Of a DNA stretch of 64,000 nt, positions 16,346 to 40,441 are shown piece by piece. Position 1 is the stretch's first letter; each line of letters begins with the position of its first letter. The notes below the pieces were generated by a model that saw only the letters and a list, made by a program, of their open reading frames with translations, was not told the DNA's origin and searched no databases. The stretch is taken from NCBI GenBank assembly GCA_965221955.1, contig CBDCTA010000017.1, forward strand, positions 1-64,000, given 5' to 3'. This stretch comes from Gammaproteobacteria bacterium. Lineage in GTDB: Bacteria > Pseudomonadota > Gammaproteobacteria > UBA4575. Both the position numbers and the translations under genes were made by a program.

Positions 16346-16498
16346 TGAGCGCAAGGATGCGCGAATAGGATACTCATCAGAGCCGATGCAGCAATATAGT
16401 TAGAGGGATTCAAAAATATCTGCTTTCGGCCAATTAGTGAGCCCATGGATGGGCGAATATGAGTTACAACATGGATGTTGTATCAGATTAAAGTCAGA
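16346..16498 (+). repeat. two tandem ~92-bp units, each with two stem-loops (GGA hexaloops); the first is followed by a truncated palindromic site at 16416-16437
   Basis: TGAGCGCAAGGATGCGCGAATAGGA... (16346) versus TGAGCCCATGGATGGGCGAATATGA... (16438); both align to the reverse complement of 17155-17214. Confidence 0.8.
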
Positions 16499-16508
16499 CT
16501 AAATTAAA

Positions 16509-16536
16509 ATGTCCGCTTACGGCCAATAGCGGACAT
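16509..16536. repeat. 28-bp palindromic site P1
   Basis: ATGTCCGCT-TACGGCCAAT-AGCGGACAT, 11 bp beyond the stop of the 165-aa gene. Confidence 0.88.
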
Positions 16537-16547
16537 CCCATATAAAG

Positions 16548-17045
16548 TTATTTTCTAATAGTCTTTATAGAATTAGTAATACCCTTTGCTCCAAAAATAA
16601 GAAAAAGGGCAATTATAAGCTCAAAAAAGGTAGTTACCATCGAGGCTTTGTTCTCTAATAAGGCAAGCGGTGAATATAACTTTTCTTCACTGATAAATAG
16701 TGAATACAAAAACCAGAACACAAGGTCAGAAAGAACAAAAAATAAAAGATAAGTCCCCAAGAGTATAAAACCAAGATGATAAAAATTATCTGAATTAAAG
16801 TTATGTTTAGGCTCGTCTTCCAATTTGAATGGATATATTCTTTTCGCAATCGTAAGAGGAAATTTCCAAAGCAGTATGGATATAAATATAGCTAACCCGC
16901 TGACTAGGAAAATGTAGCCATACTTGCGAAATGTTATTGAGTCATTTACTAGCCATAAGGCTGAAACTAATTCTCTAACTGTAGTAAGTATTAGCGCAAT
17001 TGCTAATAATCTTGCTGCTACAGCAATTATTTGTTCTGGTTTCAT
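16548..17045 (-). CDS. hypothetical 4-TM membrane protein (cassette-like cargo gene)
   Basis: 165-aa ORF with four hydrophobic stretches and a GGAG RBS; AT-rich by eye; bracketed by P1 and P2. Confidence 0.8.
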   Translation of the reverse strand: MKPEQIIAVAARLLAIALILTTVRELVSALWLVNDSITFRKYGYIFLVSGLAIFISILLWKFPLTIAKRIYPFKLEDEPKHNFNSDNFYHLGFILLGTYLLFFVLSDLVFWFLYSLFISEEKLYSPLALLENKASMVTTFFELIIALFLIFGAKGITNSIKTIRK

Positions 17046-17076
17046 AATACAGCTCCCTAATACTTACTTTGTATTA

Positions 17077-17104
17077 ATGTCCGCTTTGGGTCGAAAGCAG
17101 TCAT
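17077..17104. repeat. 28-bp palindromic site P2
   Basis: ATGTCCGCT-TTGGGTCGAA-AGCAGTCAT, 31 bp upstream of the ATG at 17045. Confidence 0.88.
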
Positions 17105-17128
17105 AATTATAGACGCAATCTGATATTC

Positions 17129-17226
17129 CCAACCTGTTCTCCATTCTAGTTCAACTGACTCTAATCTGTTGCATCGTCCCTGATGGACATCCTATTCGCG
17201 CATCCTTGCGCTCACCTCCCTGCGCT
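17129..17226 (-). repeat. conserved 'platform' repeat with GGA hairpins
   Basis: 17129-17185 is colinear with 40384-40441; 17189-17214 is a perfect 26-bp inverted copy of 16346-16371. Confidence 0.85.
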
Positions 17227-17250
17227 TATACTTTGAGCCGAAAAAAAACT

Positions 17251-17697
17251 TTATTTAAGCATCGCCTCCAACCTAGAAGCACTGAAACCACTCATTTTTT
17301 GATTACCAACCAAGATTAACGGAACACCACTGCCACCTAGTTGCTTATATTTTCTATTTGCACTTTCACTTTTTTCAATATCATATTCTTTGTACTTAAT
17401 CCCATTACTTTGCATATATCGTCGAGCTTCAGCACAGTATCCACACCAACTTGTTGAATACATTATTACTTTCTTTTGTTTAGCCAGTTTCTTTGTTTTT
17501 ATATCACTTGCTTTTGAATACGCTGAATCACTTAAACCATCAGCATTGTTAACATTCGTATCAATCTCAACTTGCTCTGCTTTGGGCAGGGGCTTATCTG
17601 TGAAGATGACTCGACCGTTTTCGTCAACCGATTTATAGATTTCTGCACATAACACTGTAGGCAACAAAATAACGAGAGGCAAAAATAACTTTTTCAT
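17251..17697 (-). CDS. secreted DUF4124 plus glutaredoxin-like domain protein
   Basis: Signal peptide, AEIYKSVDENGRVIFTDKP (DUF4124-like), CGYC redox motif, GVPLI. Confidence 0.85.
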   Translation of the reverse strand: MKKLFLPLVILLPTVLCAEIYKSVDENGRVIFTDKPLPKAEQVEIDTNVNNADGLSDSAYSKASDIKTKKLAKQKKVIMYSTSWCGYCAEARRYMQSNGIKYKEYDIEKSESANRKYKQLGGSGVPLILVGNQKMSGFSASRLEAMLK

Positions 17698-17699
17698 TT

Positions 17700-17924
17700 T
17701 CAATATCCTTGCTCTTCCAGTTCTTTCTTACGTTGCTCGGCAGAATCCATTATCGTTTGTTCAACACCATTAGCTTTATCCAAAGCCGTTTCGTATCCTT
17801 TAAAAACATTATCGTCACTTAACTTTCCAGACTCTGGCTTTTCTTTTTCAGCCACATAAGATTGATCGCTACACCCTATAACAAGCAGTGAAAAAAGTAG
17901 TATTGTTGAAGCGAGATATTTCAT
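17700..17924 (-). CDS. small hypothetical lipoprotein
   Basis: Lipobox-like LVIGC after a hydrophobic signal. Confidence 0.7.
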   Translation of the reverse strand: MKYLASTILLFSLLVIGCSDQSYVAEKEKPESGKLSDDNVFKGYETALDKANGVEQTIMDSAEQRKKELEEQGY

Positions 17925-17948
17925 ATACATAACCAACCTGTATAGAAA

Positions 17949-18269
17949 TTATAGGTCCAACCAAAGCTTCTTAGGTTGCCGCATGCCGGCTATTTTGCAC
18001 CCTTGCTGACCATAACCGTATGGGAAAAGCCCATATACATACTTGCGCGTCGCTTTCTCAGGCCCCAACTCTTCTTTTAGCTGTTTAAGTATTTTACGTA
18101 ATTCCGGAACTGCGCCATGATCAGAATAGTATTCTCGAATAAGTCGAATTAAATTCCAACGTTCTTCTGTGAGCTCAACGTTTTCTTTTTTTGCAATAAA
18201 CTCTGCAATTTCTTCTGTCCAATCGTCCGGATCAAGAAGAAAACCATCAGCGTCAGTATTAATATCCAT
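17949..18269 (-). CDS. DsrC/TusE family protein lacking the terminal cysteine (RspA-like)
   Basis: TDADGFLLDPDDWTEEIA, LTEERW, LFPYG..QQGCKIAG; ends KKLWLDL. Confidence 0.85.
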   Translation of the reverse strand: MDINTDADGFLLDPDDWTEEIAEFIAKKENVELTEERWNLIRLIREYYSDHGAVPELRKILKQLKEELGPEKATRKYVYGLFPYGYGQQGCKIAGMRQPKKLWLDL

Positions 18270-18273
18270 TTTA

Positions 18274-18636
18274 TTAACTTTTACTAAAGAACAAATAACC
18301 TGCGAATGCAATGAGAATGAAAGAGAATATCTTTTTAAAATTAGCAGTTGAAACATGCTCTAACAAATGCGGGCCAATTTGCGCACCAATGATTCCACCC
18401 AAACCTAATGCAATGGCAATTTTAAAATCTACATTAGCAAACTTAGAATGCGCAAACACAGCAGAAGCAGAAATGATTAAAATCGCAAGGAACGAAGTAC
18501 CTACAGCTTTTTGTGCGGTATATCCAAGTGCAATGAGCAATGGCACCATGAGAAAACCACCACCAAGCCCAGTGAAAGAAGCAGCAATACCGATGAATAA
18601 ACCCGAAAACAATAGAATTGCATAGTTGAGTGCCAT
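18274..18636 (-). CDS. TauE/SafE family sulfur-compound transporter, half-size (120 aa)
   Basis: GLGGGFLMVP, AVGTS, GGIIGAQIG motifs; a single repeat unit. Confidence 0.85.
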   Translation of the reverse strand: MALNYAILLFSGLFIGIAASFTGLGGGFLMVPLLIALGYTAQKAVGTSFLAILIISASAVFAHSKFANVDFKIAIALGLGGIIGAQIGPHLLEHVSTANFKKIFSFILIAFAGYLFFSKS

Positions 18637-18662
18637 AATGACTTCCTTTACGTTTACCTAAG

Positions 18663-20043
<1,381 letters not shown>

Positions 20044-20099
20044 TTAAAGCATCCTTATTAAATTAGGGCTGCAGTGTACACGAAACTTTAAGCAATGGA

Positions 20100-21224
20100 T
20101 CATTCTTCCCAGAATTTCAAATTATCAAAAAAACCTTTTACGTTGTCTGTCCACGAATGAGACTTAGGACTATGTCGATCGCCGCCTTTTTCAATATCTT
20201 TTGAAAATTCTTCTATAAGCTCTTTTTGTTTTTTAGTTAAGTTCACGGGTGTCTCAACAATTGCGGTGCACAGCATGTCACCGGTTGCACCACCACGCAC
20301 AGGTTTAACCCCTTTGCCACGTAATCTAAACAAACGACCCGATTGGGTTTCACTAGGAATTTTTAATTTCACCTTACCATTAAGTGTTGGCACTTCAATT
20401 TCACCGCCCAACGCCGCCATGCTAAAGCTGATCGGCACTTGGCAAAGAAGATTATTATCCTCTCGTGTAAATAACTCATGTGGCCGCACATTGATCTCGA
20501 CATAAAGATCCCCTGGCGGTCCATTGTTTGGACCAGCTTCACCTTCACCCGACAAACGTATTCGGTCTCCAGTATCTACTCCTGCAGGAACTTTTATGGA
20601 TAATTTTTTATTTTGTTTGGATCGACCTGAACCATGACAATAGTCACAAGGAACTTTAATTGTTTTTCCTTTTCCTCTGCACTTTGGACAGGTTTGTTGA
20701 ATAGAAAAGAAACCTTGTTGCATGCGCACTTGACCTACACCATCACATGTCTCACAAGTGTCGATAGATGAGTTTGGTGCAGCACCTGAACCATCACATT
20801 TTTCACAAGTACTTTGCTTTGGAATATCTATAGTCGATTCGGCACCGAAGACTGCCTCTTCAAGGCTTACTTCTAAGCCATACTGTAAATCTGCGCCACG
20901 ATATACACGTTGTCCTCCACCACGGCCTCCACCGAAGATATCCCCAAAAATATCACCAAAGATATCACCAAAATCAGCCGAGCCACCCCCCATGCCACCC
21001 TGTACACCTGCATGACCGAATTGATCATAGGCTTGACGTTTACTAGGATCACCTAAAACTTCATACGCTTCTTTGGCTTCTTTGAACTTCGCTTCGGCTT
21101 CTTGATCACCAGGATTACGATCAGGATGATATTTCATTGCTAAACGTCGGAAGGTTTTTTTTAAATCTCCTTCACTCGCCGTGCGCTCTACCCCAAGCAC
21201 TTCGTAATAATCTCTTTTTTCCAT
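20100..21224 (-). CDS. dnaJ: chaperone DnaJ
   Basis: HPD J-domain, four CxxCxGxG repeats. Confidence 0.98.
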
Positions 21225-21252
21225 ATTGTTAGATTTTTTTTGGCTAAATATG

Positions 21253-21285
21253 AAAAATCCGAGGTCGTTCGCACTCCCTCGGATT
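21253..21285 (-). terminator. terminator-like hairpin between dnaK and dnaJ
   Basis: AATCCGAGG...CCTCGGATT stem followed by a T-run on the minus strand. Confidence 0.6.
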
Positions 21286-21314
21286 GGTTAGTTAAATTTT
21301 AAGTTTGTTAAAAG

Positions 21315-23243
21315 CTATTTATTATCGTCTACTTCTTCAAACTCTGCGTCTACTACATCATCATCTGCAGCAGCACCTGCATCTTGTGCGCCAGCTCCAC
21401 CACTCGCATCGCCACCGCCTGCATCATTTTGTGCATACATGCGCTCCGCTAATTTACTCGAAGCTTCTGCCAATGCTTGTGTCTTCGTTTCGATAATATC
21501 TTTATCGTCTTTATCTAACACTTCTTTAAGATCTTTAATAGCATTTTCAATTTGCATACGTTCTTCTTGCTCAACTTTATCACCCATCTCCTCGAGTGAT
21601 TTTTCAGTAGCATGAATCATTTGATCAGCAGTGTTACGTGTGGCAACAAGCTCACTAAACTTCTTATCTTCTTCTGCATGTGCTTCCGCATCTTTAACCA
21701 TGTTTTCAATTTCATCATCTGATAAACCACTAGAGGCTTTAATCACGATGGATTGTTCTTTACCTGTGGCTTTATCTTTAGCCGAAACATTCAAGATACC
21801 ATTTGCATCAATATCAAAGGATACTTCGATTTGCGGCACACCTCGCTGTGCTGGAGGAATATCCGTTAAATCAAAACGACCTAATGATTTATTTCCAGTT
21901 GCTTGCTCACGCTCACCTTGCAACACATGTACGGTAACCGCAGTTTGATTATTTTCTGCAGTTGAAAACACTTGTTGTGCATTAGTAGGAATCGTGGTGT
22001 TCTTTTCAATCAATTTGGTCATCACACCACCTAAGGTTTCAATTCCTAATGAAAGTGGAGTAACGTCTAGTAGCAATACATCTTTAACATCACCGCCTAA
22101 TACACCGGCTTGAATTGCAGCACCCACTGCAACGGCTTCGTCAGGGTTTACATCTTTACGTGGTTCTTTACCGAAAAAGCCTTGTACTGTTTCTTGTACT
22201 TTCGGCATACGCGTTTGACCACCCACTAATATCACATCATCAATATCCGATGCAGATAAACCAGCATCTTTTAATGCTTGCTTACATGGTGGAATCGTAC
22301 GCTGTACAAGTTCATCAACAAGTGATTCAAGCTTGGCGCGCGTTAATTTAATATTTAAATGTTTAGGGCCTGATGCATCCGCAGTGATATAAGGAAGATT
22401 CACTTCAGTTTGTTGACCAGAAGAGAGTTCAATCTTAGCTTTTTCTGCTGCTTCTTTAAGCCTTTGCAAGGCAAGTGGGTCATTATGCAAATCGAAACCT
22501 TGGTCTTTCTTAAACTCATCAGCAAGATAATCGATTAAACGCATATCGAAATCTTCACCACCTAGGAAGGTATCACCATTAGTAGATAACACTTCAAACT
22601 GATGTTCACCGTCGACTTCTGCAATTTCGATAATTGAAATATCAAAAGTACCGCCACCTAAGTCATACACCGCAATTTTGCTATCGCCGCGTTTTTTGTC
22701 CATACCATAAGCCAATGCAGCTGCAGTCGGCTCATTGATAATTCGCTTTACTTCTAGTCCAGCGATTTTGCCGGCATCTTTTGTAGCTTGTCTTTGTGAG
22801 TCATTAAAATATGCAGGCACAGTGATCACTGCTTCGGTTACTTCTTCACCAAGATAATCTTCTGCAGTTTTTTTCATTTTCATTAGTACACGCGCAGAAA
22901 TTTCAGGTGGGGCCATTTTTTTGCCACCCACTTCTACCCATGCATCGCCATTGTCGGCTTTAATAATGTTATACGGCACAAGCTTGATATCTTTTTGTAC
23001 CGCATCTTCTTCATAACGCCGGCCAACTAATCGTTTAATGGCGTATAAAGTGTTATTAGGATTTGTGACCGACTGACGTTTTGCCGCTTGACCAACAAGC
23101 ACTTCGTCGTCATCCGTAAATGCCACAATGGAAGGTGTGGTTCGATCGCCTTCACTATTCTCAATCACTTTAGGTGTAGTACCTTCCATGACCGCTACAC
23201 ACGAGTTGGTGGTACCTAAATCAATTCCAATGATTTTACCCAT
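21315..23243 (-). CDS. dnaK: chaperone DnaK
   Basis: [25 protein letters not shown] tail. Confidence 0.99.
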
Positions 23244-23310
23244 CGTTGTTCTCCAAAATTCTCAAAATTTAGTTAGTTAACATTTAATCAAAAACATATT
23301 TATGCTTATT

Positions 23311-23337
23311 AATTGGGCCTAAAAAACGGTTTTCAAG
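23311..23337 (-). promoter_or_regulatory. putative sigma32 promoter of dnaK
   Basis: Minus strand CTTGAAAACCGTTTTTTAGGCCCAATT resembles CTTGAA-N13-15-CCCCATNT. Confidence 0.65.
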
Positions 23338-23402
23338 CATAAAATGGTAAATAAATTCACTTTTTATGTTTCTTTGATATACCACGCCAGCCCTCAGCCA
23401 CA

Positions 23403-23957
23403 TTATCCTGCGGCTTTAGAAACAATCACCATAGCGGGGCGAATCAGCCGTCCATGTAGGGTATAGCCCTTCTGCATAACGGTTAGCACTGTATTAGGCT
23501 CATGCTCCGTACTTTCCTGCATCGTCATCGCTTCGTGTAAATTAGGATCAAACGCCTTACCGGTTGGATCAATTTCTTCTATAGAAAACTTCTCAAAAGC
23601 GTTGCTTAACATTTTCAGCGTTAATTCAGTGCCTTCTTTTAACTTTTCAAGATCTATATCATCGGTATTTAAACCCAACTCTAAGCTATCTTTGACTTGT
23701 AGCAATTCATTCGCAAACTTCTCATTTGCATATTTATGGGCATTCGAAACATCACGTTCGGTGCGCTTACGCAAATTTTCCATTTCGGCTTGAGTGCGAA
23801 TCATTTTATCTTGATACTCGGCTACTTGCTGTTGCGCTTCCTCAAGCTGTTGCTCAAGCCCATTCAAAGAATGGTCTTGTGATTCTTGATCAGATTCCTT
23901 CACGTCGGATTCATCCATATCTGCATTTTGTTCAGTTTCTTGTTCAGTATTTGGCAT
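23403..23957 (-). CDS. grpE: nucleotide exchange factor GrpE
   Basis: AEMENLRKR, FDPNLHEAM, QKGYTLHGRLIRPAMV. Confidence 0.97.
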   Translation of the reverse strand: MPNTEQETEQNADMDESDVKESDQESQDHSLNGLEQQLEEAQQQVAEYQDKMIRTQAEMENLRKRTERDVSNAHKYANEKFANELLQVKDSLELGLNTDDIDLEKLKEGTELTLKMLSNAFEKFSIEEIDPTGKAFDPNLHEAMTMQESTEHEPNTVLTVMQKGYTLHGRLIRPAMVIVSKAAG

Positions 23958-24029
23958 AAAGTTCTATGCTAATGTGTAGGCAAATAGTAATTATTCAAGT
24001 CTACAATGACAAAATTTTTAAACGTATTT

Positions 24030-25088
24030 CTAGCTGTGACTATTAAGTGCTTCGCCTAAAAGCTTAGCAGTTAGATCCACAATGGGTATTACTCTTTCGT
24101 AAGACATGCGCGTGGGTCCAACTACTGCTAATACGCCCATAATCTCATCATCTACCGTATAGGGTGAGGTCACTACGCTGCAATCATCCAAGGCTTTGTG
24201 CCCCGATTCCTGGCCAATAAATATTTGTATACCTTCCGCACATATACATCGATCTAACAAGTTTAAAAACTCTCGCTTTTGATTAAAAGCATCAAATAAT
24301 CCTCGTAATTTATAGATATCTGACAACTCTTCGTATTCCATCAAATTGGTTTGTCCGACAACTACATAATCTGGTTTACCGCTATTCGTGTCAGAAAATA
24401 TTTTTTCACCCATCTCTACTGCTGAACGCATGAGCTCATTCATATTTTCACGTACATGGTCGAGTTCTTGCAAAATTTTCTGACGTGCTACAATTAAGTC
24501 TTGGCCAGCACATAATTCATTTAAGTAGTTTGCAGCTTGTTGTAGCTCTGATGGACTGTATTCGCGATCGGTGTGAATAATACGATTCTGAACTTCTTTT
24601 TGATTCACAATCAAAATAGCTAACACGCGTTGATCTGATAAAGGTAAAAACTCTATCTGTCTTAATTCAACACGCTCATGTTTCGGCAAAGTAACTACAC
24701 CTGCCATACTGGTTAATCCAGAAAGTAAGCCTGATGCGCTTTCAACCAAACCACTCATACTTAAATTTGGCTGCAAATCTTTTGACACGCGTTTCACCAC
24801 ATCAGAAGTAAGTGGTTGCACAGTTAGCATTGTGTCTACAAATAACCGATAACCTTTAGTAGTTGGTACGCGACCCGAAGAAGTATGTGGAGACTCAACA
24901 AAACCCAACTCTTCTAAATCTGCCATTACATTTCGAATGGTAGCTGGACTGACATCTAAATCGGACATTTTTGCCAGATTGCGTGAACCCATGGGGTGGC
25001 CATCTGAAATATAACTTTGCACCAACACTTTTAATAAGTGCTGCGCACGTTCATTCAGCGATTTACTAAGATCTTCACTTGAACTCAT
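24030..25088 (-). CDS. hrcA: heat-inducible transcription repressor HrcA
   Basis: SPATIRNVMADLEELG, PHTSSGRVPT, VVGPTRM. Confidence 0.97.
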   Translation of the reverse strand: MSSSEDLSKSLNERAQHLLKVLVQSYISDGHPMGSRNLAKMSDLDVSPATIRNVMADLEELGFVESPHTSSGRVPTTKGYRLFVDTMLTVQPLTSDVVKRVSKDLQPNLSMSGLVESASGLLSGLTSMAGVVTLPKHERVELRQIEFLPLSDQRVLAILIVNQKEVQNRIIHTDREYSPSELQQAANYLNELCAGQDLIVARQKILQELDHVRENMNELMRSAVEMGEKIFSDTNSGKPDYVVVGQTNLMEYEELSDIYKLRGLFDAFNQKREFLNLLDRCICAEGIQIFIGQESGHKALDDCSVVTSPYTVDDEIMGVLAVVGPTRMSYERVIPIVDLTAKLLGEALNSHS

Positions 25089-25139
25089 AGTTTGAAGACA
25101 GCATTCGTAGTCACCAGATACAGTGGTTAGGCTAAAAAT

Positions 25140-25166
25140 TTAGCACTCAAGACTAGAGAGTGCTAA
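25140..25166. promoter_or_regulatory. CIRCE operator
   Basis: Exact TTAGCACTC-N9-GAGTGCTAA, about 50 bp upstream of hrcA. Confidence 0.96.
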
Positions 25167-25295
25167 AAGTATAATTACAGCCTCACCATTACATGTCAAG
25201 AAAGTGTACTTGTTCCAGGGCTTGAGGCTCTCAGCCCATGGTGTCACTAGATAATCCATGATAGCTTTAATAAAAATCAAAGACATAGACCCATC

Positions 25296-26177: not shown

Positions 26178-26204
26178 TAGCTACTCATAGCTTTTCACAA
26201 GCCT

Positions 26205-27878: not shown

Positions 27879-27879
27879 A

Positions 27880-29680: not shown

Positions 29681-29685
29681 AAAAA

Positions 29686-31083: not shown

Positions 31084-31189
31084 ATGCTACTCACTCAACT
31101 GCTTTCTAAAAATTTAACTTCTTCTTGTAAATTATTGACATAAATAGATTATTATCGAATGCTTTGAGCAAATACACCATAATATCGAC

Positions 31190-31663
31190 ATGGCCAAGCC
31201 TAAGCATAAAACAGATAACACCATAGCCGTTAACAAAAAAGCCCGACATGATTATTTTATCGAGGAAAAAATTGAGGCAGGCTTAGTCTTAGAGGGCTGG
31301 GAAGTCAAAAGTCTACGCTCAAAAAGTGTGCAACTAAAAGAAAGCTACGTGCTGGTTAAAAATAGGGAGGCATGGCTATTAGGTGCTCACATTAGCCCAT
31401 TACCTTCAGCCTCTACACATAAATCAACCGACCCCACTCGTACACGTAAACTGCTTTTACACAAAAACGAATTAGCAAGGCTCATTGGTGCAGTCGAGCG
31501 AAAAGGATACACGATCGTACCTTTATCGATGTACTGGAAAAAAGGTAAGGCCAAGCTTGAAATTGGAATCGCGAAAGGCAAGCAGAAACAAGATAAACGC
31601 GCCAGTATCAAAGAACGAGACTGGCAACGAGACAAACAAAGAATTTTAAAACACAACCGATAA
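31190..31663 (+). CDS. smpB: SsrA-binding protein
   Basis: [34 protein letters not shown]. Confidence 0.98.
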
Positions 31664-31753
31664 GCCGAGCGCAATAACTGTTCTATTTTCAAGCAATACT
31701 TTCTTAAATTAGGTTAACCAAAGTATTTGCTAAGAAGTTATTTTAGCAGTAAA

Positions 31754-31978
31754 TTATTTTACTCCGCAGTTAAACACACCTGTCTTTGCTTCTTTTTGAG
31801 TCGCTTCAACACATTCCTCATATGAGCCGAATTCTCCGATCTCTCTGGAAGTTGATGAATTAGGCTTATCGTAGACCTCACCAACCCAATTACCGCCCGC
31901 TGTGCCTCCATCATCACCACAACCAAAAATAAAAAGTGATAAGGCAAATAAAGTGCAAACAAAAAGCTTATGTAACAT
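31754..31978 (-). CDS. small hypothetical lipoprotein
   Basis: Signal ending IFGC, two further cysteines; GGAG upstream. Confidence 0.65.
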   Translation of the reverse strand: MLHKLFVCTLFALSLFIFGCGDDGGTAGGNWVGEVYDKPNSSTSREIGEFGSYEECVEATQKEAKTGVFNCGVK

Positions 31979-32097
31979 GAAATCTCTCCACAATTAGGCG
32001 CAGTCTAGTTGCGCTTAAAGCTTGGGTTAGTTAGAAAGAGCAAAATGTAGCGAAATTCTAGCAAGTCGGCAACTGCTAAGAGCATGCATAAATTGAC

Positions 32098-32814
32098 TTA
32101 TTCAGCGTTTTCTTCAAGCCATACACAGCCTGACTCGCTTTCCTGCTGAATTTTATTTAGAAAGGCTTCATGCGCTTGTAACTCGCTCTCATCTGCATAA
32201 ATCACTTTGAGAGCCTCGCGGTCCCCATCAAGCCCTGCTCTTGATCGCTTACGTTGAGCTGCGTTATCAGCATTTGCAGATAAACTGAGAGTAGCTTGTC
32301 CACCGGTTAACGCTAAATATACATCTGCGAGTATCTGCGCATCTAGTAACGCACCGTGAAGCTCACGATGTGAATTATCGATTTCATACCGTTTACAAAG
32401 CGCATCTAGATTATTTTTTTGACCAGGATGCATCTTTCTTGCCATCTCAAGCGAATCAGTCACTTTACAGCAACTATTAATATCCGTAACGCTATGACCC
32501 ACTAGCGCTAATTCCGCATTGATAAACCCAACATCAAAACTTGCGTTGTGAATGATCAACTCAGTGTCTGCTATGAATTCAATAAAATCATCCGCAATAC
32601 TATGAAATTTAGGTTTGTCAGCAAGAAATTCTAAACTAATTCCATGCACTTCTTGTGCACCTGCATCGATCTCGCGCTCTGGATTAAGAAATTGATGAAA
32701 TTTTTGGTCTGTTGTGCGTCTGTGTAAAATCTCAACACAACCAATTTCAATAATTCGGTGCCCTTGCAAGACTTCTAAACCCGTAGTTTCAGTATCCAGA
32801 ACAACTTGACGCAT
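32098..32814 (-). CDS. dnaQ: DNA polymerase III epsilon subunit
   Basis: LDTETTG, HNASFD, HGALLDA. Confidence 0.97.
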   Translation of the reverse strand: MRQVVLDTETTGLEVLQGHRIIEIGCVEILHRRTTDQKFHQFLNPEREIDAGAQEVHGISLEFLADKPKFHSIADDFIEFIADTELIIHNASFDVGFINAELALVGHSVTDINSCCKVTDSLEMARKMHPGQKNNLDALCKRYEIDNSHRELHGALLDAQILADVYLALTGGQATLSLSANADNAAQRKRSRAGLDGDREALKVIYADESELQAHEAFLNKIQQESESGCVWLEENAE

Positions 32815-32848
32815 AAATCAATCCAAAAATTAAACGTGTATCGAACAA

Positions 32849-33295
32849 CTACAATAACAAATTATCGATCGCTTCATTCGCTAATTGATCCACTATTTCA
32901 TTTTCTGCATGACCACTATGCCCTTTCACCCATTCCCAAGTCACGCTATGTTTTTCAACCAACTTATCCAATTGTTTCCATAAATCTTCATTCTTAACCG
33001 GTTTTTTAGCAGCGGTTTTCCAACCATTGCGTTTCCAATTCGCCATCCACTGCTGAATTCCATCCATTAAATAGCGCGAATCTGTTGTTATATGTACGTT
33101 GCAAGGGCGTGTGAGTTTTTCCAAGGCAGACACTGCAGCCTGTAACTCCATGCGATTATTGGTCGTGAGCTCTTCAGCCCCCTGAAGTAAAGTTTCTTTC
33201 CCTCCATAGCGCAAAATAGCGCCCCAGCCCCCTGGCCCAGGATTCCCCCTACAGGCTCCGTCAGTGAAGATTTCGACGCGTTGTTCTGTTGGCAT
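32849..33295 (-). CDS. rnhA: ribonuclease HI
   Basis: [28 protein letters not shown]. Confidence 0.97.
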
Positions 33296-34043
33296 GCTGT
33301 CTTGCACTTGGTTCAGTTACATTCACTGGAATAATACGACGACGAGGCCGCCACGGTTGTGGCAGTGGTGTAAGAGTGAGTTCTCGTTTTTTTGCCACAA
33401 ATATCTGCAAACCACCAAAACTTCCAAAACCGACACGTTCAGCTTTGCTAATGAATTGCATACGTTGTTGAAAACGTAAATTTTGAATGGGCGGGCGCAT
33501 GCCCACATGTTCAATACTCATGACTTTAAAATCGAGTAATGAAAGCCAGTCTTTTATTCTCCTTGCAGTATAAAAATGTCCTGCCCAGGGTGCGCGCTGA
33601 CTACGCATGAAAATTAATTTGCTAAATCCCATCATGCTAATCGGATTAAAACCAATCATGACCAAATGTCCTTCAGAAATTAATACGCGATGTATTTCAC
33701 GCAACACCTGATGGGGCTCAGGCGAAAAATCTAAAGTATGCGGCAAAACAATGAGGTCCAAAGTGTCTTGAGAAAAGGGTAACGCTAAAGGGTTAGCCGC
33801 AACATTCCCTTGCTTAGTATCTAGCGTCATGTAAATTTTCTGACCGATTGTACTACTCGATAGTAAATCAAGCTCTTCTGATAAACCGCCAATCTGTAAA
33901 GCATGATAACCAAACAAACTAGGGAGTAATTGTTCTAATTTAGCCTGTAGCTCTTTGTATAAAATTTGTCCTGCTGGTGTTATATACCAGCCCTGCAATT
34001 GCTGTGTATATTTTGCATAATTAAACTGCACAGATTCTTTCAT
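33261..34043 (-). CDS. YafS-like class I SAM-dependent methyltransferase
   Basis: [17 protein letters not shown]...[16 protein letters not shown]; upstream of rnhA. Confidence 0.88.
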
Positions 34044-34179
34044 GTGTTTTATTTTACCTTAAAACAAACATTTGTAACGTAAACTTTTCATACTAGATAA
34101 AGACCGCAGTAAATTTAATAAATTCATTTTTAAATTTAGTTGTTGAACTATTTATACAGTGTATTTATGCTTCGCGGCG

Positions 34180-35601
34180 ATGAAGAAGAAGCTATTCAAT
34201 AAAAATGCTTTAGTCATAAGTATATTGGCTTTTTTTATCGTCGCATGTTCACACGCCCCAACAAAATCTGATCTTACGAATATAACGAATACTAGCAAAA
34301 TAGTTTTTACCACAACGACACAAAAACCAGATTTAATTATTCCACCAGCAAGTAATTTACTTAATCACAACATAACTAAAAATAACACAAAAGATCGTCT
34401 TATTTGGGAACATATAAGTGACAGTCTTGAACTCACGAAATTTTATTCCCACCCGCACGTTATCAAACAACAAGAAAAATATTTAGCTGAAAGCGAATAT
34501 TTATCTATAGTCAGTAAACGCTCAGAGCCATTTATTCATTTTGTTTTAACTGAAGTTAAAAAGCGCAAGATGCCAGCCGAGCTTGCGATTTTACCTATCG
34601 TTGAGAGTGGCTATTATCCTCGCGCCCGCTCGCGCGCAAAGGCTGAGGGTTTGTGGCAAATCATGCCGTATACCGGCAAGGAATTAGGGCTCAAACACAC
34701 GTATCAATACGATGGGCGTCACGATGTATATGCTGCGACTTCTGCAGCTCTCGATTATCTAGAACAAATGCATCGCCGTTTTGATGGTGACTGGTTACTA
34801 GCTCTAGCGGCTTATAATGCAGGTCCGCATCGCGTTAAGCGCGCGCTTCAACACTCAATACATTCGAAAAACGAAAATTCATATTGGGATTTGCATTTGC
34901 CTCGCGAAACACGTCAATACATTCCAAAAATTTTGGCATTAAGTGCAATCGTTCAGAACGAAGAATTTAGTGACACCTTATTGTACCCAATTGCTGATAA
35001 GCCTTACTTACAAACCATCCAGCTTTCGAAACGAATTTCTCCAGCTAAGTTAGTCCATGCTACAGATGTAAGTGAAAGTGAAATAAAATTACTTAACCCT
35101 GCATTACGAAATTTGAACACCCCAATCCATGCTGGATATCACTTGCTTGTACCAAAGCATGACGCCGAATTTTTATCTCTTGCAATTGAAAAGATGCCAG
35201 AAGATACGCAACCTGTTTTAGCAAAACATATAATCAATCGCGGTGAATCGTTAAGTACTATCGCACATCGTTACGGCACTAGTGTAATTGCTTTACGTGA
35301 GGCAAATAATTTATATAGCAACACCATTGTGGCTGGACACTCATTATTCGTGCCTTCGACATCAGATGCAGAAATTATTAAATCCTCCAACAAACCAAAA
35401 CAACCAAAATCTCCCATACAACGCTCTGCCAACAATACGAACAAATCAATCGCAGAACCCTATATGTATGTTGTCGCCATGGGGGATAGCTTTTGGAAAA
35501 TTGCCCATCGCAATAACACTACAGTTCAACGCCTATATAAAATCAATGGTCGAAATGGTGATGAACCTCTACTCCCAGGTGAGACCATTCTGGTTGATTA
35601 G
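34180..35601 (+). CDS. mltD: LysM-containing lytic transglycosylase (MltD-like)
   Basis: PIVES, GLWQ, LAAYNAG, ETRQYIPK, two LysM domains, lipobox IVAC. Confidence 0.9.
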   Translation: MKKKLFNKNALVISILAFFIVACSHAPTKSDLTNITNTSKIVFTTTTQKPDLIIPPASNLLNHNITKNNTKDRLIWEHISDSLELTKFYSHPHVIKQQEKYLAESEYLSIVSKRSEPFIHFVLTEVKKRKMPAELAILPIVESGYYPRARSRAKAEGLWQIMPYTGKELGLKHTYQYDGRHDVYAATSAALDYLEQMHRRFDGDWLLALAAYNAGPHRVKRALQHSIHSKNENSYWDLHLPRETRQYIPKILALSAIVQNEEFSDTLLYPIADKPYLQTIQLSKRISPAKLVHATDVSESEIKLLNPALRNLNTPIHAGYHLLVPKHDAEFLSLAIEKMPEDTQPVLAKHIINRGESLSTIAHRYGTSVIALREANNLYSNTIVAGHSLFVPSTSDAEIIKSSNKPKQPKSPIQRSANNTNKSIAEPYMYVVAMGDSFWKIAHRNNTTVQRLYKINGRNGDEPLLPGETILVD

Positions 35602-35951
35602 CTTGTAAACCCTGCCCTCGCCCTGTTGCTTGGATGCTCTATGCCTGCTAAAACTGTGGATTCCTTACATAATCCACTGATTTTAATGGCATTACGTCCC
35701 TAAAATTAGATAACTCGTCGCGCTTTTTGCCAGCACTTATGGTGGCACTTGCTAGGTCTGTAGTATGCTCCAAGACCTTGAAATACCAATACAATCGCCG
35801 TGGAAATCACCTTCGCAAAGACGAAGTACATAGACCTGGAATCGTCATTATCCGCCATGAAGCAAATGGACCTTCTTAGCATTGCCCTAAAAGCAAATGA
35901 TAGACGCACGAGTTTTCTAAAACTTCTCGCCTACATATAACCAAAATTCAA

Positions 35952-37477
35952 ATGCTCAGAGAAAATAAAATCGACATGAAGTGGTTTGCATTGAGCTTGC
36001 TGGGTGTAGTGTTAGTCGCCACAGTATTATGGAACTTGAGCATTTCCCCATTGATTACCCAAGTTACGATAATTGTTTTAATTTCTATAATTTCGCTCAG
36101 CTGGGCTTTTCTGGGTACACCTTCTTCCAGCAATCCACAATCTAAGCACAACGATATTTCATATAGATTTGAATCGCGCAATAGTGATCGTAGTGTTGGT
36201 CTTAAACTACAAGGGTTAGGTCAACTCAATTTAGCTTTTGAAAAATTTAAACAATGTCCACATAACCATGACACGGCAAATTTAATTTATAACTTAGCAA
36301 GCGATTTTCAAATCAAAGGTGAACCAGAAAATGCTAAAAAAGCATTTTTATACATTGCAAATTTTGCAGCCAAACTTCAAAGACATTCAGGAGCGAATTG
36401 CATCCTTTAACAGCGATCTTATCTTACTTAGAACCTAACGAAGAACAGGTAGATGCCATTTCTGTAATTGCAGCACTACTTCAAACTCAACAAAATGCAC
36501 CTGAAAATACGGAAGCGAACCTACTTCTAGCGGACCAATCTACTATTATCGAAAAAGCGATTGAAACAGATAAAACGTTAATCATCGCCCCTGATGCAGA
36601 GCCAGAAGAGGAGGAAGTAATTGCTGGCGAACTCAACGAATATCCTTCGCTTTACGGCAGTCGCTATAAAGTTAATAGTGTTCTAGGTCAGGGTACAACT
36701 GGGGCAGTATTTAAGGGCAAAGATATTGTTACTGATCAAATAGTAGCCATTAAAGTACTCAACCTATCCGATGAATTAGAAGAAAACCAACTAGACGAAT
36801 ATAAATTCCGTTTTCATCGAGAAATCGAAACTGCTGGCAATTTAAGCCACCCTAATATCGTTAAAATACTGGATAGCGGCGAAACCGAAGGCTATGCCTA
36901 TATTGCCATGGAATACGTAGATGGCATTAATTTACGCAATTATGCACGCGCTGATCAATTACTCCACCCTAGGACTGTGCTCAAAATAATTGCCCAGTGT
37001 GCTGATGCACTTGCCTATTCTCACAAGCAAGACCTAATCCACCGTGATATCAAACCAGCAAATATCATATATAACAAAACCGATGATTACGTTAAGCTTA
37101 CGGACTTTGGTATAGCAAGAATTCCTGATTCTACACGAACTCGTGCAGGGTCTATTTTGGGAACGCCTTTATATATGTCACCAGAGCAACTTGCGGGGGA
37201 GAAATTAGATGCACGCTCTGATCTATATTCTTTAGGAGTCACTCTATACCATTTACTAACTGGCTCACCGCCGTTTCGACCTAAAACTATGGCCGAGTTA
37301 ATGCGCTCTATCACACAAGAACAACACAAAGATATTGCTGAAATTAATCCTGACATACCTTCGTGCATTGCATGGTCAGTAAATAAAGCCTTAGAAAAAG
37401 ATCCTGATAAACGCTTCCAGTCAGCTGCAAGCATGGCCAACAAACTTCGCGAATGCGAGATGATGATAGATAATTAA
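35952..37477 (+). CDS. membrane-anchored Hanks-type Ser/Thr kinase (ORFs 35952..36410 and 36398..37477 are probably one frameshifted gene)
   Basis: N-terminal 2 TM plus TPR-like LGQLNLAFEKF...LIYNLA; kinase motifs GQGTTG, VAIK, HRDIKPAN, DFG, GTPLYMSPE; an intermediate frame reads QPNFKDIQERI across the junction. Confidence 0.85.
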
Positions 37478-37478
37478 T

Positions 37479-38306
37479 ATGGATCTTAAAGGCATCTTAG
37501 ATATCGCAGGTCGCTCGAACACAGGGTTGGTACGTTCTAATAACGAAGACAAAATTGGTGAAGATCAAGAAATTGGTTTAGTCGTACTTGCTGATGGTAT
37601 GGGGGGTTACAAAAGCGGTGAAGTTGCAAGTGAAATTGCAGTCAACACGATTCTTGAAGAACTCCGTAAATCCGTACCTGATTTAACGCCTGGCGAAATA
37701 GATGAGCAAACAGGCTATACAAAAGAAAGTTTAGCAGCGAGAAATTCAATCGTAAAAGCGAATGAAGCGATTTTTTCCATGAGTAGCAGCGAAGCTCAGT
37801 ATCGCGGCATGGGAACAACATTAGTCATGGGTATTTTTTACGATAACCAAATTACCATTGCACACGTTGGTGACTCAAGAATGTATCGTTACCGTGATAA
37901 TAAATTACAACAAATAACAGTTGACCATACCTTACTACAAGAATTAGTTGACCGTGGTTTTTACACACAAGAAGAAGCAAACACCTCGCTGAATAAAAAC
38001 TTAGTCACTCGAGCACTAGGCATTGAAGGCAGCATTGCGGTAGACATCAAAGAAGATTTGGCGATGCCTGGCGATATCTATTTGCTGTGTTCCGACGGTC
38101 TGACAGATATGGTCGATGATCAGGAAATTCATGCCACCGTAACGGCGTTTAGGGATAATCTTGATCAGTTGGCTGACAAGCTTGTCGCGATAGCCAATAA
38201 CAATGGAGGCCGGGACAATGTCTCGGTTTTATTAGCGCAACCTAATAAAGAATTCCCCGGAAAGAAAAACTGGAAGTCAAAGTTCGGTAAGTTATTAGCG
38301 AAGTAA
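37479..38306 (+). CDS. PP2C (Stp1-like) Ser/Thr phosphatase
   Basis: RSNNED, LADGMGG, AHVGDSR, CSDGL, GGRDN. Confidence 0.94.
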   Translation: MDLKGILDIAGRSNTGLVRSNNEDKIGEDQEIGLVVLADGMGGYKSGEVASEIAVNTILEELRKSVPDLTPGEIDEQTGYTKESLAARNSIVKANEAIFSMSSSEAQYRGMGTTLVMGIFYDNQITIAHVGDSRMYRYRDNKLQQITVDHTLLQELVDRGFYTQEEANTSLNKNLVTRALGIEGSIAVDIKEDLAMPGDIYLLCSDGLTDMVDDQEIHATVTAFRDNLDQLADKLVAIANNNGGRDNVSVLLAQPNKEFPGKKNWKSKFGKLLAK

Positions 38307-38309
38307 GTT

Positions 38310-39203
38310 ATGAGTACGCCTAAGTTAATTGTAAGCATTGATGAAAAAGTTGTAGATGAAGTTCCTATCGAAAAGGAAACCATAACAATTGGTAGACGCA
38401 CTGATAATGATATTTGCTTAGATAACCTAGCAATCAGCGGTTATCATTCTCAAATTAGCACAGTCTTAGATGACTGTTTTTTAGAAGATTTAAATAGCAC
38501 GAATGGCACATTCGTAAATTCCAAAATCGTAAAAAAGCATGCGCTTAAAGATGGCGATATTATCGATATCGGCAATCATAGAATTAAATATGTGAACCAT
38601 CTTGCCACCACTTCAGCAAATAATGAGTTTGAAAAAACTCTTATCATGACTGCAAACTCAGAAAGGAATAACAACCTATCTGATGAACAAGACATAAGCA
38701 ATTTAGAAAAAGAAATTAATTCACTTGAAGAAGATATAGTCGATGCAACAAACGAAGATGAAGTAAATGATCTTTTAGATTCAGCAATAAACTCATCTCG
38801 CGAAGATATTGATAAAGTAATTTCTAGCCCTAAAGATCACTCTCTTGAACTTTCTGAAGAAGATGATGGTGACACCCAAGAAACAGAAGATGCCAAAATT
38901 GATACTGAATTTAATTCACAACCACCTGCTACTGTAAGTATCGGGCGAATTCAAATTCTAAATGGTAAAAATAGTGGTAAAGAAATCACCTTAGACAAAT
39001 CTTTAACAACAGTAGGCAAACCTGATGTTGCAGTCGTTGGTATCACAAAACGTAATCAAGGCTATTTTATTATCCACATTGATGGTAATCCTGATACACC
39101 TTCAAAACTAAACGGCGAAGCAATTGTTGGCAAAGCCCAACCTATAGAAGACCACGACATCATTGATGTTGCAGGAATTAAGTTAGAATTCTTTGTCGAA
39201 TGA
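38310..39203 (+). CDS. tandem FHA-domain protein with acidic linker
   Basis: IGRRTDND, ISGYH, DLNSTNGT (canonical FHA), plus a degenerate C-terminal FHA. Confidence 0.92.
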   Translation: MSTPKLIVSIDEKVVDEVPIEKETITIGRRTDNDICLDNLAISGYHSQISTVLDDCFLEDLNSTNGTFVNSKIVKKHALKDGDIIDIGNHRIKYVNHLATTSANNEFEKTLIMTANSERNNNLSDEQDISNLEKEINSLEEDIVDATNEDEVNDLLDSAINSSREDIDKVISSPKDHSLELSEEDDGDTQETEDAKIDTEFNSQPPATVSIGRIQILNGKNSGKEITLDKSLTTVGKPDVAVVGITKRNQGYFIIHIDGNPDTPSKLNGEAIVGKAQPIEDHDIIDVAGIKLEFFVE

Positions 39204-39232
39204 TTGCAGCGATACTTGGACAGATCTAAATG

Positions 39233-39257
39233 AAAGCCAGCGTATGCTGGCTTTTTT
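39233..39257 (+). terminator. rho-independent terminator of the kinase/PP2C/FHA operon
   Basis: AAAGCCAGC-GTAT-GCTGGCTTTTTT. Confidence 0.85.
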
Positions 39258-39261
39258 GATG

Positions 39262-39289
39262 ATGACTGCTTTAGGCCAATAGCAGTCAT
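39262..39289. repeat. 28-bp palindromic site P3
   Basis: ATGACTGCT-TTAGGCCAAT-AGCAGTCAT. Confidence 0.88.
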
Positions 39290-39358
39290 TCAATCCAATG
39301 AATTTTCAGTATGAAATACTGATAAATAAATTAAGCCCAATAGTTATTAATTTATATC

Positions 39359-40199
39359 TCATTTAATCTCAGATAAAAGATCAGGATTTGTGACTAGCTT
39401 TCTTACCCCCATGAGCATGATCTTCTTTAAATACATTATCATTACACCACTTTCCAAGTGTATTAATATCTAACTTGGCGCACTTAGGACGAACACTCCA
39501 AGTGACTTGTAGTGGAGAGCAGACCTGTTCTGTGTATTTAGGACCTGTCGTAGAACCCAAGAATTCTATGGGCTTCCCTGTATTGGCTGGAATCATCTTA
39601 GCTTGATGCAAACCATTTACTTTATTTCCTTCATAAGATATGTCATTAAAATCAAGTGCAGAATTATCATTCACAAGCGTAAATACTTGCGTCTCAACTC
39701 GTAGATTTGGATTTGCACAACTCTCTGATAAGCATGATCCCAAGCCTTGGCCTGGCATTACATCACATGAACTATGTACCCAATGTACTTCAATCGTGTC
39801 TCCAGGATTTAAACCTTTACATACCGTGTCTCCAGGTGGCATCAATTCTGTTTTGCTGAGTGATTGACTTATATTGCACTTATATCCTCCTCCAGATCCG
39901 TTTTCACCATCACCCGCAAAAATTGAGAATGCCTCTGCCTTATGTTCCGCATTATTATGGAAATGTATATTGCACAAATTCATTTCTTTATAATTGGGCG
40001 CTAATGCAAAAACTCTTTTGTTTGTACCAACAACGCTATCAATATCTCTAGGTGTTTGTGGCCCATAGCCTTGACATGCAGTCGCTTTGATATCATTTGA
40101 ATGTAATTCAGCATCAGGGAGCTCTTCTTCACCGATACAAACTATTGGTAGTGAAATTAAGAGAGATGTAATTAATGTTTTAATATTTAGATGCCTCAT
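39359..40199 (-). CDS. secreted delta-class carbonic anhydrase-like protein (C-terminal 1-bp frameshift at the C-run 39406-39410)
   Basis: GPQTPRDI, CNIHFH..AEHK, IEVHWVHS, GSTTGP, CSPLQVTWSVR, DHAHG; removing one base gives HAHGVRKLVTNPDLLSEIK*. Confidence 0.82.
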
Positions 40200-40235
40200 T
40201 TTTAGTTCCTAATAGTATTTAAAGTTTATTCGATA

Positions 40236-40360
40236 ATGTTCGCTTTGGGTCGATAGAAATTTGCTCCTCGACAATTGCTTCCTGCATTGCTCTACCTTCT
40301 GCATCCATGCAGTCGTACAATTTCTGCACTTCCACCCTCCATGGTGGTCGTAGCAGTCAT
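40236..40360. repeat. palindromic site P4, split by a ~95-bp GGA-hairpin insert
   Basis: ATGTTCGCTTTGGGTCGATAG (40236-40256) ... TAGCAGTCAT (40351-40360); the insert shares GCACTTCCACCCTCCATGGYGGTCGT with 56335-56360. Confidence 0.8.
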
Positions 40361-40383
40361 TTTGAGCCTATACTTTGAATTCT

Positions 40384-40441
40384 CCAACCTGATCATATTT
40401 CTAAATCACTTAACTCTAATCTGTTCACATCATCCAAGATG
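40384..40441 (-). repeat. second copy of the conserved 'platform'
   Basis: CCAACCTG-N7-TTCTA-N2-TCA-N4-ACTCTAATCTGTT..CATC-N6-GATG, colinear with 17129-17185. Confidence 0.85.

Follow-up and report, generated by a model that had tools for sequence, protein, structure and literature searches.

Integrons are the textbook route by which single genes are stockpiled and shuffled, and the dif modules of Acinetobacter are, to our knowledge, the only other cassette system with bounding sites that is widely discussed. In this work we analyze a stretch of 64,000 nucleotides from Gammaproteobacteria bacterium (GTDB lineage Bacteria; Pseudomonadota; Gammaproteobacteria; UBA4575; NCBI GenBank assembly GCA_965221955.1, contig CBDCTA010000017.1, positions 1 to 64,000), hereafter the window, in which two accessory genes, one of them encoding a delta carbonic anhydrase (delta-CA), are each flanked by 28-bp sites of two kinds, called A and B in this text. 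An earlier reading of this DNA from its letters alone (the sequence-only reading) proposed one-gene accessory cassettes placed between conserved 28-bp sites that are neither attC nor dif, and this core idea stands, with some cassettes having two genes. The cassettes share one architecture and one gene polarity, carry accessory cargo, occupy hot spots with empty and swapped alleles and are spread through one family, and they have been gained and lost between haplotypes 99% identical, with break points at the sites. That the two window genes are members of a family-wide chromosomal cassette system, with exchange between like sites brought about by a recombinase, is in our estimate about an even call.

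The sites of the dif modules resemble chromosomal dif, with a XerC arm, a 6-bp spacer and a XerD arm, according to one account (PMC13141974). Like the dif modules of the Acinetobacter Rep_3/OrfX plasmids, the cassettes considered here are discrete accessory modules between 28-bp sites, they are found in differing contexts with homology ending at the sites, and their gene segments alternate with short linkers, as the C and D modules alternate, here with two non-crossing spacer classes. Unlike dif modules, they have arms without likeness to dif, they are chromosomal, forming 41 clusters, they belong to marine Gammaproteobacteria and not to Acinetobacter plasmids, their gene polarity is fixed, and they end in elements that we call T. 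Dif modules have inversely oriented flanking sites; A and B sites alternate along arrays, with a relative orientation that is ambiguous, as the forward B spacer matches the A spacer at 6 of 10 positions and the reversed B spacer at 5 of 10 (by eye from the consensus).

As in integrons, the accessory cassettes are tightly packed, mostly consist of a single gene and point the same way, their content changes rapidly between close strains, single-gene cassettes have a 3' site (50 of 65 intervals, B to A), and the composite inter-cassette site, of ~100-110 bp, is made of two palindromic "simple sites." Unlike integrons, the system has no IntI above the cut-off, no AAC-first/GTT-last arrangement in the consensus of B, linker and A in either orientation (AAC/GTT being what we take to be the consensus of the R''/R' parts of attC), and it has many loci, two different sites per cassette and a possible promoter in each linker. 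Repetitive extragenic palindromic (REP) sequences, including the bacterial interspersed mosaic elements (BIMEs) and the REPINs, doublets of ~100-110 bp that are associated with the RAYT transposases, are similar in being extragenic palindromes joined by two linker lengths into doublets of ~100-110 bp, in tens to hundreds of copies, often at gene 3' ends. Unlike these, the present units are found without RAYT (0 of 5 genomes), their stems do not covary, the loop of 10 nt is invariant, and they flank accessory genes, with a strict polarity, and coincide with the places where cassettes are gained or lost. Engineered cassette exchange between two incompatible sites, in which swaps preserve orientation and self-excision is forbidden, fits the fixed platform ends and differing cargo described below; that system is a laboratory design, whereas the sites here are natural and an enzyme is only proposed. 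As to miniature inverted-repeat transposable elements (MITEs) with their terminal inverted repeats, inverted T ends are present here, and none of six transposase-type families is found in the genome of the window (G000) or in a closed relative (G010).

Two Classes of Conserved 28-bp Sites

The window is contig C17 of the G000 assembly (2.69 Mb, 29 contigs, 96.6% complete, 4.3% contamination), and 41 genomes were searched, G000, 24 others of the family, 14 of these in the genus, and 16 from other families. The window sites P1, P2 and P3 (Table 1) have exactly the positions and letters given in the sequence-only reading, and the search pattern proposed there is found in the window at three places (six two-strand matches) versus 0.05 expected, with none of 100 shuffles reaching six. 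In G000, allowing at most one mismatch, this pattern has 131 forward and 130 reverse matches, and a reversed control has none. A looser scan of G000 detected 139 candidate 28-mers, 129 of which can be classed by their spacer, leaving 10 unclassed. Class A (67 sites, 39 forward and 28 reverse) has the consensus ATGTCYGCT TTCGGCCAAT AGCGGACAT, with TTCGGCCAAT as the spacer, and class B (62 sites, 33 forward and 29 reverse) has the consensus ATGTCCGCT TTGGGTCGTT AGCRGWCAT, with TTGGGTCGTT as the spacer. At position 3 of the spacer, 64 of 67 A sites have C and 59 of 62 B sites have G, neither class ever having the letter typical of the other. At most a few A sites have a B-like T at position 6, and crossed spacer types are absent among the 129 sites. 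These sites form 41 clusters (of 21, 20, 8, 7, 7, 6, 6, 5, 4, 3, 3 and 3 sites, seven of two and twenty-two of one) that are spread over many contigs, one array adjoining xerD and others not, with some of the site and cassette counts being inflated by contigs of G000 that duplicate one another.

This picture departs from the sequence-only reading in several respects. A single asymmetric spacer with one orientation in all copies had been assumed, but there are two spacer classes, and both orientations occur genome-wide, with site orientation being fixed relative to the gene. P2 had been described as a hybrid of two arm types, a state that is normal for B sites. The arms had been thought to covary, but identical variable triplets are found in 29 of 67 A sites (23.1 expected if independent) and in 12 of 62 B sites (12.9 expected), nor do B and A arms covary within the units composed of B, linker and A. 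All 28 positions, spacers included, have the same consensus in other genera, and this conservation, combined with uncompensated arm variation, points to A and B being sites at which a protein recognizes duplex DNA, not hairpins. The literature searched, exclusive of supplements, holds no description of the A and B sites and, in the papers listed, no occurrence of the two spacer-bearing motifs, and Rfam has no match to A or B sites or to the T and X elements described below. An uptake signal was also considered and rejected: 113 of the 139 genomic copies of ATGTCCGCT fall in called sites, so this is not a dispersed uptake sequence.

Cassettes and Their Cargo

A cassette consists of one gene, sometimes two, with a B site ~30 bp upstream and an A site just downstream, and cassettes are either solitary or combined in arrays of up to 21 sites. 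Across the inter-site intervals of 150-3000 bp in G000 (n=65, some being doubled through the duplicated contigs), the longest open reading frame (ORF) runs from B to A in 50 and in the opposite direction in 6, the remaining intervals being 5 with mixed site orientation and 4 without an ORF of at least 40 amino acids (aa); in many of the intervals the ORF fills 85-96% of the length. The proposed check of whether the sites bracket ORFs in a fixed orientation was thus answered in favor of the sequence-only reading. T elements abut the 3' ends of convergent flanking genes. The 48 cargo proteins scanned matched 40 Pfam families, including globin, M23, M48, GNAT, delta-CA, DUF1428, Na/H exchanger, OsmC and HAD, and no recombinase is present among the 25 of these 40 families that were listed. 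No ORF of at least 120 aa is multi-copy in G000, apart from the contigs duplicating one another. Degenerate, cargo-free units, in which a site and a linker stand between two T elements, are found at C22:45729-45933 and C29:575437-575615.

One array in G000 starts just after a tRNA gene (C26:69336-69423). It is bracketed by a 279-bp direct repeat, 90% identical (C26:69392-69670 versus 75027-75305), that contains the tRNA 3' end and an A site, and these repeats look like those that bound an island after its integration at a tRNA.

Turnover at the Sites

Paralogous cassettes occupy different contexts, and their homology ends at the outer site edges. One example is the first window cassette, 16509-17104, which is 78% identical to C5:3669-3077 over exactly the span that begins with P1 and ends with P2. 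Another example is the pair C5:756-1534 and C26:70422-69643, 86% identical, with ends 1-7 bp from site edges, and in two further paralogous pairs homology starts or ends at a site edge. Contigs C14 and C23 represent two versions of the locus beside xerD and dsbC, with flanks that are 99.0% identical over 4,317 bp and 99.5% identical over 10,848 bp, and with arrays of 4.1 kb and 12.5 kb that have in common one 1.49-kb stretch at 98.7% (one cassette). C14 possesses an extra 1,059 bp, made up of a two-gene cassette (an HxlR-like regulator, recognized by eye, and a 205-aa ORF) and one A site, and the sequence common to the two ends of this indel is the 28-bp A site only, with 25 or 26 positions identical. 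At the B end, the two versions are identical through the site and 4 bp further, and unrelated beyond. A third junction joins the same cassette to unrelated sequence, and the site between them has its spacer inverted in one of the two haplotypes. The near-identity of all sites prevents any crossover from being localized inside a site. Paralog edges, array differences between C14 and C23 and junctions at base level all agree with the earlier expectation that cargo boundaries coincide with sites. Some cassettes match the genomes of other species at 82-90%, with core stretches matching at 75-81%.

Two versions of several regions exist within G000. In addition to C14/C23, at 99% identity, these are C19/C3 and C24/C6, with shared ORF runs of at least 60% identity, and such pairs, along with the 4.3% contamination, fit two strains in one bin.

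Orthologous Loci and Distribution

The locus between the FHA and ABC ATPase genes, which has the delta-CA cassette in the window, is empty in 4 of the 14 genus relatives (G009, G012, G013, and G014), the convergent flanking genes being 19-45 bp apart with no site and no T. In G002, G003, G004, and G005 it has other cargo with A, B or T elements, and in other genus relatives 0.8-3 kb without recognizable sites. G000, G002, G004, and G005 share one T-to-ABC junction, and the junction of the flank with the A site (P3) is common to G000 and G002, with divergence just past the site. Such conserved T and A junctions with differing cargo indicate that the platform is old and fixed and that its content changes. 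Likewise, the xerD locus has three cassettes in G010, one in G014 and none in G001, and at the locus of the first window cassette the same double T and A site precede two different cassettes in G010; the cargo gene of this locus in the window has no match among those listed for the 14 genus relatives. Empty and swapped alleles had both been predicted, and both exist at the FHA/ABC and xerD loci, but the empty ones have neither site nor T and are not the single-site alleles envisaged.

The exact site pattern is present in 20 of the 41 genomes, G000 included, with controls at 0 throughout: apart from G000, the carriers are 18 of the 24 other family members, including 13 of the 14 other genus members, and 1 of the 16 genomes outside the family. 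The five genera of the family in which the pattern is not found have genomes of 1.5-1.8 Mb. In a species-representative collection, the exact A-type pattern occurs in 97 stretches, nearly all from uncultured marine Gammaproteobacteria or from bins labeled "Thiotrichales," with a few under other labels, and in closed genomes of uncultured marine Gammaproteobacteria the sites are chromosomal. This family of uncultured marine Gammaproteobacteria has practically no insertion sequences in the two genomes checked most closely, yet it holds tens to more than 100 cassettes at dozens of chromosomal loci.

An isolate of Pseudomonas schmalbachii (high GC) has one exact A site (L074 4847-4874, on a contig of 1.24 Mb), with a B-like half-site ~370 bp away and no other copy in the genome. 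With 26 specified bases, chance is very unlikely, and this site may be a transferred remnant; as a cultured carrier the species was rejected, given the single A copy, the lack of IntI and the different gene arrangement. In another genome, the closed G019:C1 (2.76 Mb), the matches listed are mostly on the plus strand at 0.13-0.28 Mb, on the minus strand at 0.30-1.77 Mb and on the plus strand at 1.78-2.45 Mb, with some mixing, and these blocks suggest a link to replication direction or a gene-strand bias.

Linkers, T Elements and X Elements

A larger mosaic, with inverted T elements and a conserved linker after each B site, had been missed in the sequence-only reading. In arrays, B and A sites are joined in this order by a linker, 45 or 55 bp long, into a composite unit of ~100-111 bp, and the distance between the starts of B and A, in 21 such units, is 72/73 in 11, 82/83 in 9 and 59 in 1, a phasing of ~10 bp. 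Between A and B there is a conserved motif, TTGGAA followed after 17 nt by a TAAAAT-like hexamer, reading into the gene, and, on the strength of this motif, the linker may hold a promoter from which transcription passes through B to the gene. The description of the cassettes as promoterless is therefore doubtful, with the support from a promoter scan (see below) being weak. The spacing step of ~10 bp and the motif are compatible with the action of a recombinase and with general recombination alike.

T elements, ~60-75 bp in length (64 nhmmer matches in G000), close the ends of arrays and of solitary cassettes in inverted orientation, with T and then A on one side and B, linker and T on the other. 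RNAalifold gave no structure from the T alignment, and two hairpins were set by hand. Hairpin H1 has 81.6% of cells paired and 40 two-sided changes versus at most 6 in slid controls, and in hairpin H2 the paired cells make up 74.9%, with 56 cells changed on both sides versus at most 22; for each, the observed pairing was reached by 0 of 500 shuffles, and compensatory change is present. T elements probably insulate or terminate the flanking genes.

X elements are hairpin-rich repeats of ~96-115 bp, with 13 nhmmer matches in G000. One is inserted in the window site P4 and another at the same position of a B-type spacer at the end of the xerD-locus array in G010 (L105 about 14150-14265), a third, at G000 C23:10646-10760, adjoins an A-type half-site of the C23 array, and X is also found in G013, a genome without A or B sites. 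From its placement in B-type spacers and beside a half-site, X looks like a small mobile element that targets A and B sites.

Possible Modes of Exchange

Like-site exchange is the action proposed for dif modules and the basis of engineered cassette exchange with two incompatible sites. In our proposal, the A and B sites would be double-stranded binding sites of a dimeric recombinase, and exchange would occur only between like spacers, A with A and B with B. A single such exchange would insert or delete a cassette along with one site, as in the 1,059-bp indel, and a pair of exchanges, one at A and one at B, would swap the cargo while keeping its orientation. The conserved 28 bp, the two non-crossing classes, the fixed places relative to the gene and the lasting platforms agree with recombination sites at which the two spacers have to be identical. 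The excision of one gene through its own flanking sites (P2 with P1, P4 with P3), as the sequence-only reading would have it, is disfavored, the recombination of P1 with P2 being unlikely because A and B spacers differ and never cross. A further step, which we take more tentatively and rate somewhat short of even, is that this may be a third natural cassette system beside integrons and dif modules, with fixed, T-closed platforms and two incompatible 28-bp sites, served by a recombinase outside the families searched or by XerC/XerD acting on a second, unrelated class of sites.

A number of observations weigh against exchange by a recombinase. RecA-dependent or slippage events would place break points at repeats just as well. 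A search for a recombinase distributed in step with the sites, as anticipated from the sequence-only reading, found none. The integron integrase model TIGR02249 (cut-off 265 bits) remains under its cut-off in G000 and in five of five complete or near-complete site-bearing relatives, the best G000 pieces (83 and 46 bits) being in XerD, and the best matches skip model positions 189-236. The closed genome of G010, with 72 sites, has XerC, XerD and one 406-aa integrase as its only tyrosine recombinases, and the extra integrases of different genomes, at 21-59% identity to one another, are not one family. Y1/RAYT (PF01797) is found in 0 of 5 genomes, the closed G010 and G019 among them, and Transposase_31 in none of 5; IS110, rve and DDE_Tnp_1 are in neither G000 nor the closed G010, and TnpB is in 0 of 20 site-bearing genomes. 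A 540-aa serine recombinase (C26:85307-86926) has a clear homologue (E 1e-248 or better) in only 4 of the 41 genomes (G000, G010, G011, and G019). XerC and XerD are the only recombinases common to all carriers, but a role for them is not supported by site likeness: the canonical dif of G000 at C4:59807 (minus strand; ACTTCGCATAA TATATA TTATGTTAAAT), the only zero-mismatch match to what we take to be the dif motif, is unlike A or B by its letters, with arms matching at 4 of 11 and 5 of 11 positions in an 11-6-11 reading aligned by hand. Homologues of the delta-CA, 70-74% identical, are present at three other loci in G006, G008, and G009, where the 4-5 kb examined around each contain no A, B, T or X element, so that this cargo also moves, or once moved, by other means. 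The promoter scan detected a linker promoter beside two of six B sites of the scanned stretch and none in the window locus, and its total for the stretch, 5 versus 10.8 in shuffles, is below background. Finally, the five public runs, being assembled contigs only, are unsuited to circles or rare junctions; site-edge "joints" in these contigs have 22-38 letters per side, as repeats produce, and nothing was drawn from joints or from uncovered parts.

General recombination at the repeats is a serious rival to exchange by a recombinase, and we hold it to be the less probable of the two. The A, B, linker, T and X elements would then be REP/BIME-like expression modules, acting as terminators or insulators, as mRNA ends, or as operators around a portable promoter, and the repeats would act as portable homology arms in RecA-driven exchange, with double crossovers with the DNA of relatives and deletions between direct repeats producing gain, loss and swap without a dedicated recombinase. 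This agrees with there being no candidate recombinase in the closed, site-rich G010 and none common across carriers, with the compensatory changes in the T hairpins, and with the TTGGAA/TAAAAT-like motif between A and B, where the ~10-bp phasing would also suit two operators. Repeats of ~100 bp or more suffice for RecA, and the units of B, linker and A (100-111 bp) and the ends made of T and a site (more than 100 bp) have enough length for it. The ends of the 1,059-bp indel, however, share 28 bp, with 25 or 26 identical, a poor substrate for RecA, and general recombination gives no reason for perfect 9-bp inverted arms and two invariant spacer classes to be kept across genera, or for solitary cassettes having an A site at their 3' end, with no promoter there on which it could act. 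Affinity with REP is further questioned by the absence of RAYT from the five genomes, by A and B arms that, unlike REP stems, show no compensatory change, and by the fixed polarity, with one unit per intergenic gap across arrays of 20 sites, which is atypical of REP.

A MITE-like carrier, in which T, A, cargo, B, linker and T would move as a whole through inverted ends of ~100 bp by a transposase acting in trans, with arrays resulting from nested or adjacent insertions followed by deletion of internal T ends, is improbable in our view. It would account for the inverted T bounds (minus on the left and plus on the right, in loci bounded on both sides), for the empty alleles without T and sites, which suggest that a whole unit was once inserted, for the cargo-free units on C22 and C29, and for the internal linker, which retains the tail of a T (by eye). 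But no transposase from the families tried is found in G000 or G010, the only ORFs of 120 aa or more in multiple copies are those of duplicated contigs, and the T junction at the FHA/ABC locus is conserved in four species with differing cargo, so that the platform stays and the content moves; the filled and empty alleles come from species only ~75% identical, too divergent for a target duplication to be read. Still further down the scale, and hardly credible to us, is the possibility of divergent integron remnants, clusters of attC sites without an integrase that would depend on an IntI from outside, whether from a plasmid, a phage or an unbinned contig. In integron fashion, short ORFs point the same way and each has behind it a composite site of ~100-110 bp that contains two "simple sites," GNAT proteins, DUFs and small enzymes are typical integron cargo, and the composite unit, as a single strand, folds into a long imperfect hairpin better than shuffles (z -3.7, -4.0). 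B-A pairing as an attC-like hairpin was nevertheless rejected, as no covariation supports it, and the attC AAC/GTT triplets of the presumed consensus are not at the expected places in either orientation, IntI is under the cut-off in G000 and the five relatives, and 41 clusters are not one array beside intI.

The cassette sites represent a new sequence class, with turnover visible between haplotypes 99% identical. If a dedicated enzyme exists, this would be a new site-specific recombination system with two incompatible sites and a ready-made tool for cassette exchange; if there is none, conserved repeats alone would give integron-like plasticity to genomes. Either way, the system bears on how accessory functions are gained in streamlined marine genomes.

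Recombinases Considered and Set Aside

The 540-aa serine recombinase, in a first test, was present in three of three site-rich and in none of two site-free genomes. It is not found in the closed carriers G001, G014, and G022, it has no A/B motif nearby, and it has weak partial matches in two site-free genomes of other families. It is not the general enzyme, and it may still matter in the genomes that have it. Its gene is part of a prophage-like block (G000 C26:80000-91000; L139) common to G010, G011, and G019 only, which also encodes, with functions assigned by eye, a 162-aa ORF, a terminase-like protein of 500 aa and a ParB-like/methylase-like ORF of 440 aa. Extra tyrosine recombinases were also rejected: several are within a few kb of the G019 arrays, yet their identities, in the range given above, do not make a single family. 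One region of G019 (G019:C1:1248459-1258604; L152) contains three tyrosine-recombinase genes that share a strand (378, 377, and 374 aa), the first being separated from the second by an A/B cassette array, and looks like a recombinase trio invaded by cassettes, peculiar to G019.

Features of the Window Loci

The order of elements at locus 1 is T, half-site, T, P1 (A), gene, P2 (B), linker and T, and at locus 2 it is P3 (A), delta-CA gene, P4 (B, split by X), linker and T (Table 1). The outer T region at the left of locus 1 forms a 54-nt inverted repeat, 85% complementary, with 17167-17220. The truncated site next to it had been recognized before and consists of a left arm and an A spacer; a half-site beside a T element recurs in the xerD-locus array, and a double T followed by an A site is also found at the orthologous locus 1 of G010. 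The split of P4 by an insert was likewise read correctly, P4 being a site of the P2 kind and the insert being a copy of the separate repeat family X. The distances between site and ATG, 31 bp at P2 and 36 bp at P4, are as originally given, but the delta-CA ORF, described as 39359-40199, has different bounds (Table 1). A convergent 573-aa gene (40448-42169) takes its final codons and its stop from the T element that closes locus 2 on the right.

Table 1. Elements of the two cassette loci in the window (positions, strand and basis of assignment).
Feature	Position	Strand	Basis
T element, outer, left end of locus 1, two hairpins	16346..16403	-	nhmmer model from genome copies
Truncated A site: left arm ATATCTGCT and spacer TTCGGCCAAT, without right arm	16416..16434	+	sequence reading
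T element, inner, 11 bp from P1	16437..16497	-	nhmmer
P1, A site: 9-bp arm, 10-bp spacer TACGGCCAAT, 9-bp arm; 3' side of cargo gene	16509..16536	+	
Cargo gene 1, 165 aa ("membrane protein" is a label of the sequence-only reading only)	16548..17045	-	ORF
P2, B site, spacer TTGGGTCGAA, 31 bp upstream of cargo ATG	17077..17104	+	
Linker L after P2, holds conserved ATTCCAACC (possible -35, gene's strand)	17105..17154	+	consensus downstream of 62 B sites
T element, right end of locus 1	17155..17215	+	nhmmer
P3, A site, 3' side of delta-CA gene	39262..39289	+	
Cargo gene 2, delta carbonic anhydrase, 272 aa	39381..40199	-	ORF; Pfam PF10563 CA_like, E 1.1e-75
P4, B site split in spacer, halves 40236-40256 and 40354-40360	40236..40360	+	repeat family D9
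X element, ~96-bp repeat inside P4 spacer	40258..40350	+	nhmmer
Linker L after P4	40361..40409	+	repeat family D10; B-site downstream consensus
T element, right end of locus 2	40410..40471	+	nhmmer

To the left of locus 1, the 397-aa gene at 15006-16199 (EAL-HDOD in the sequence-only reading) is, in at least nine genus relatives, either on another contig or distant from the flanking genes, suggesting that the whole junction on this side has been rearranged in G000. Elsewhere in the window, at 49334-49563, there are ATC/GTC-rich repeats with a 9-bp phase, in 13 overlapping copies, whose minus strand would encode an Asp/His-rich stretch of low complexity.

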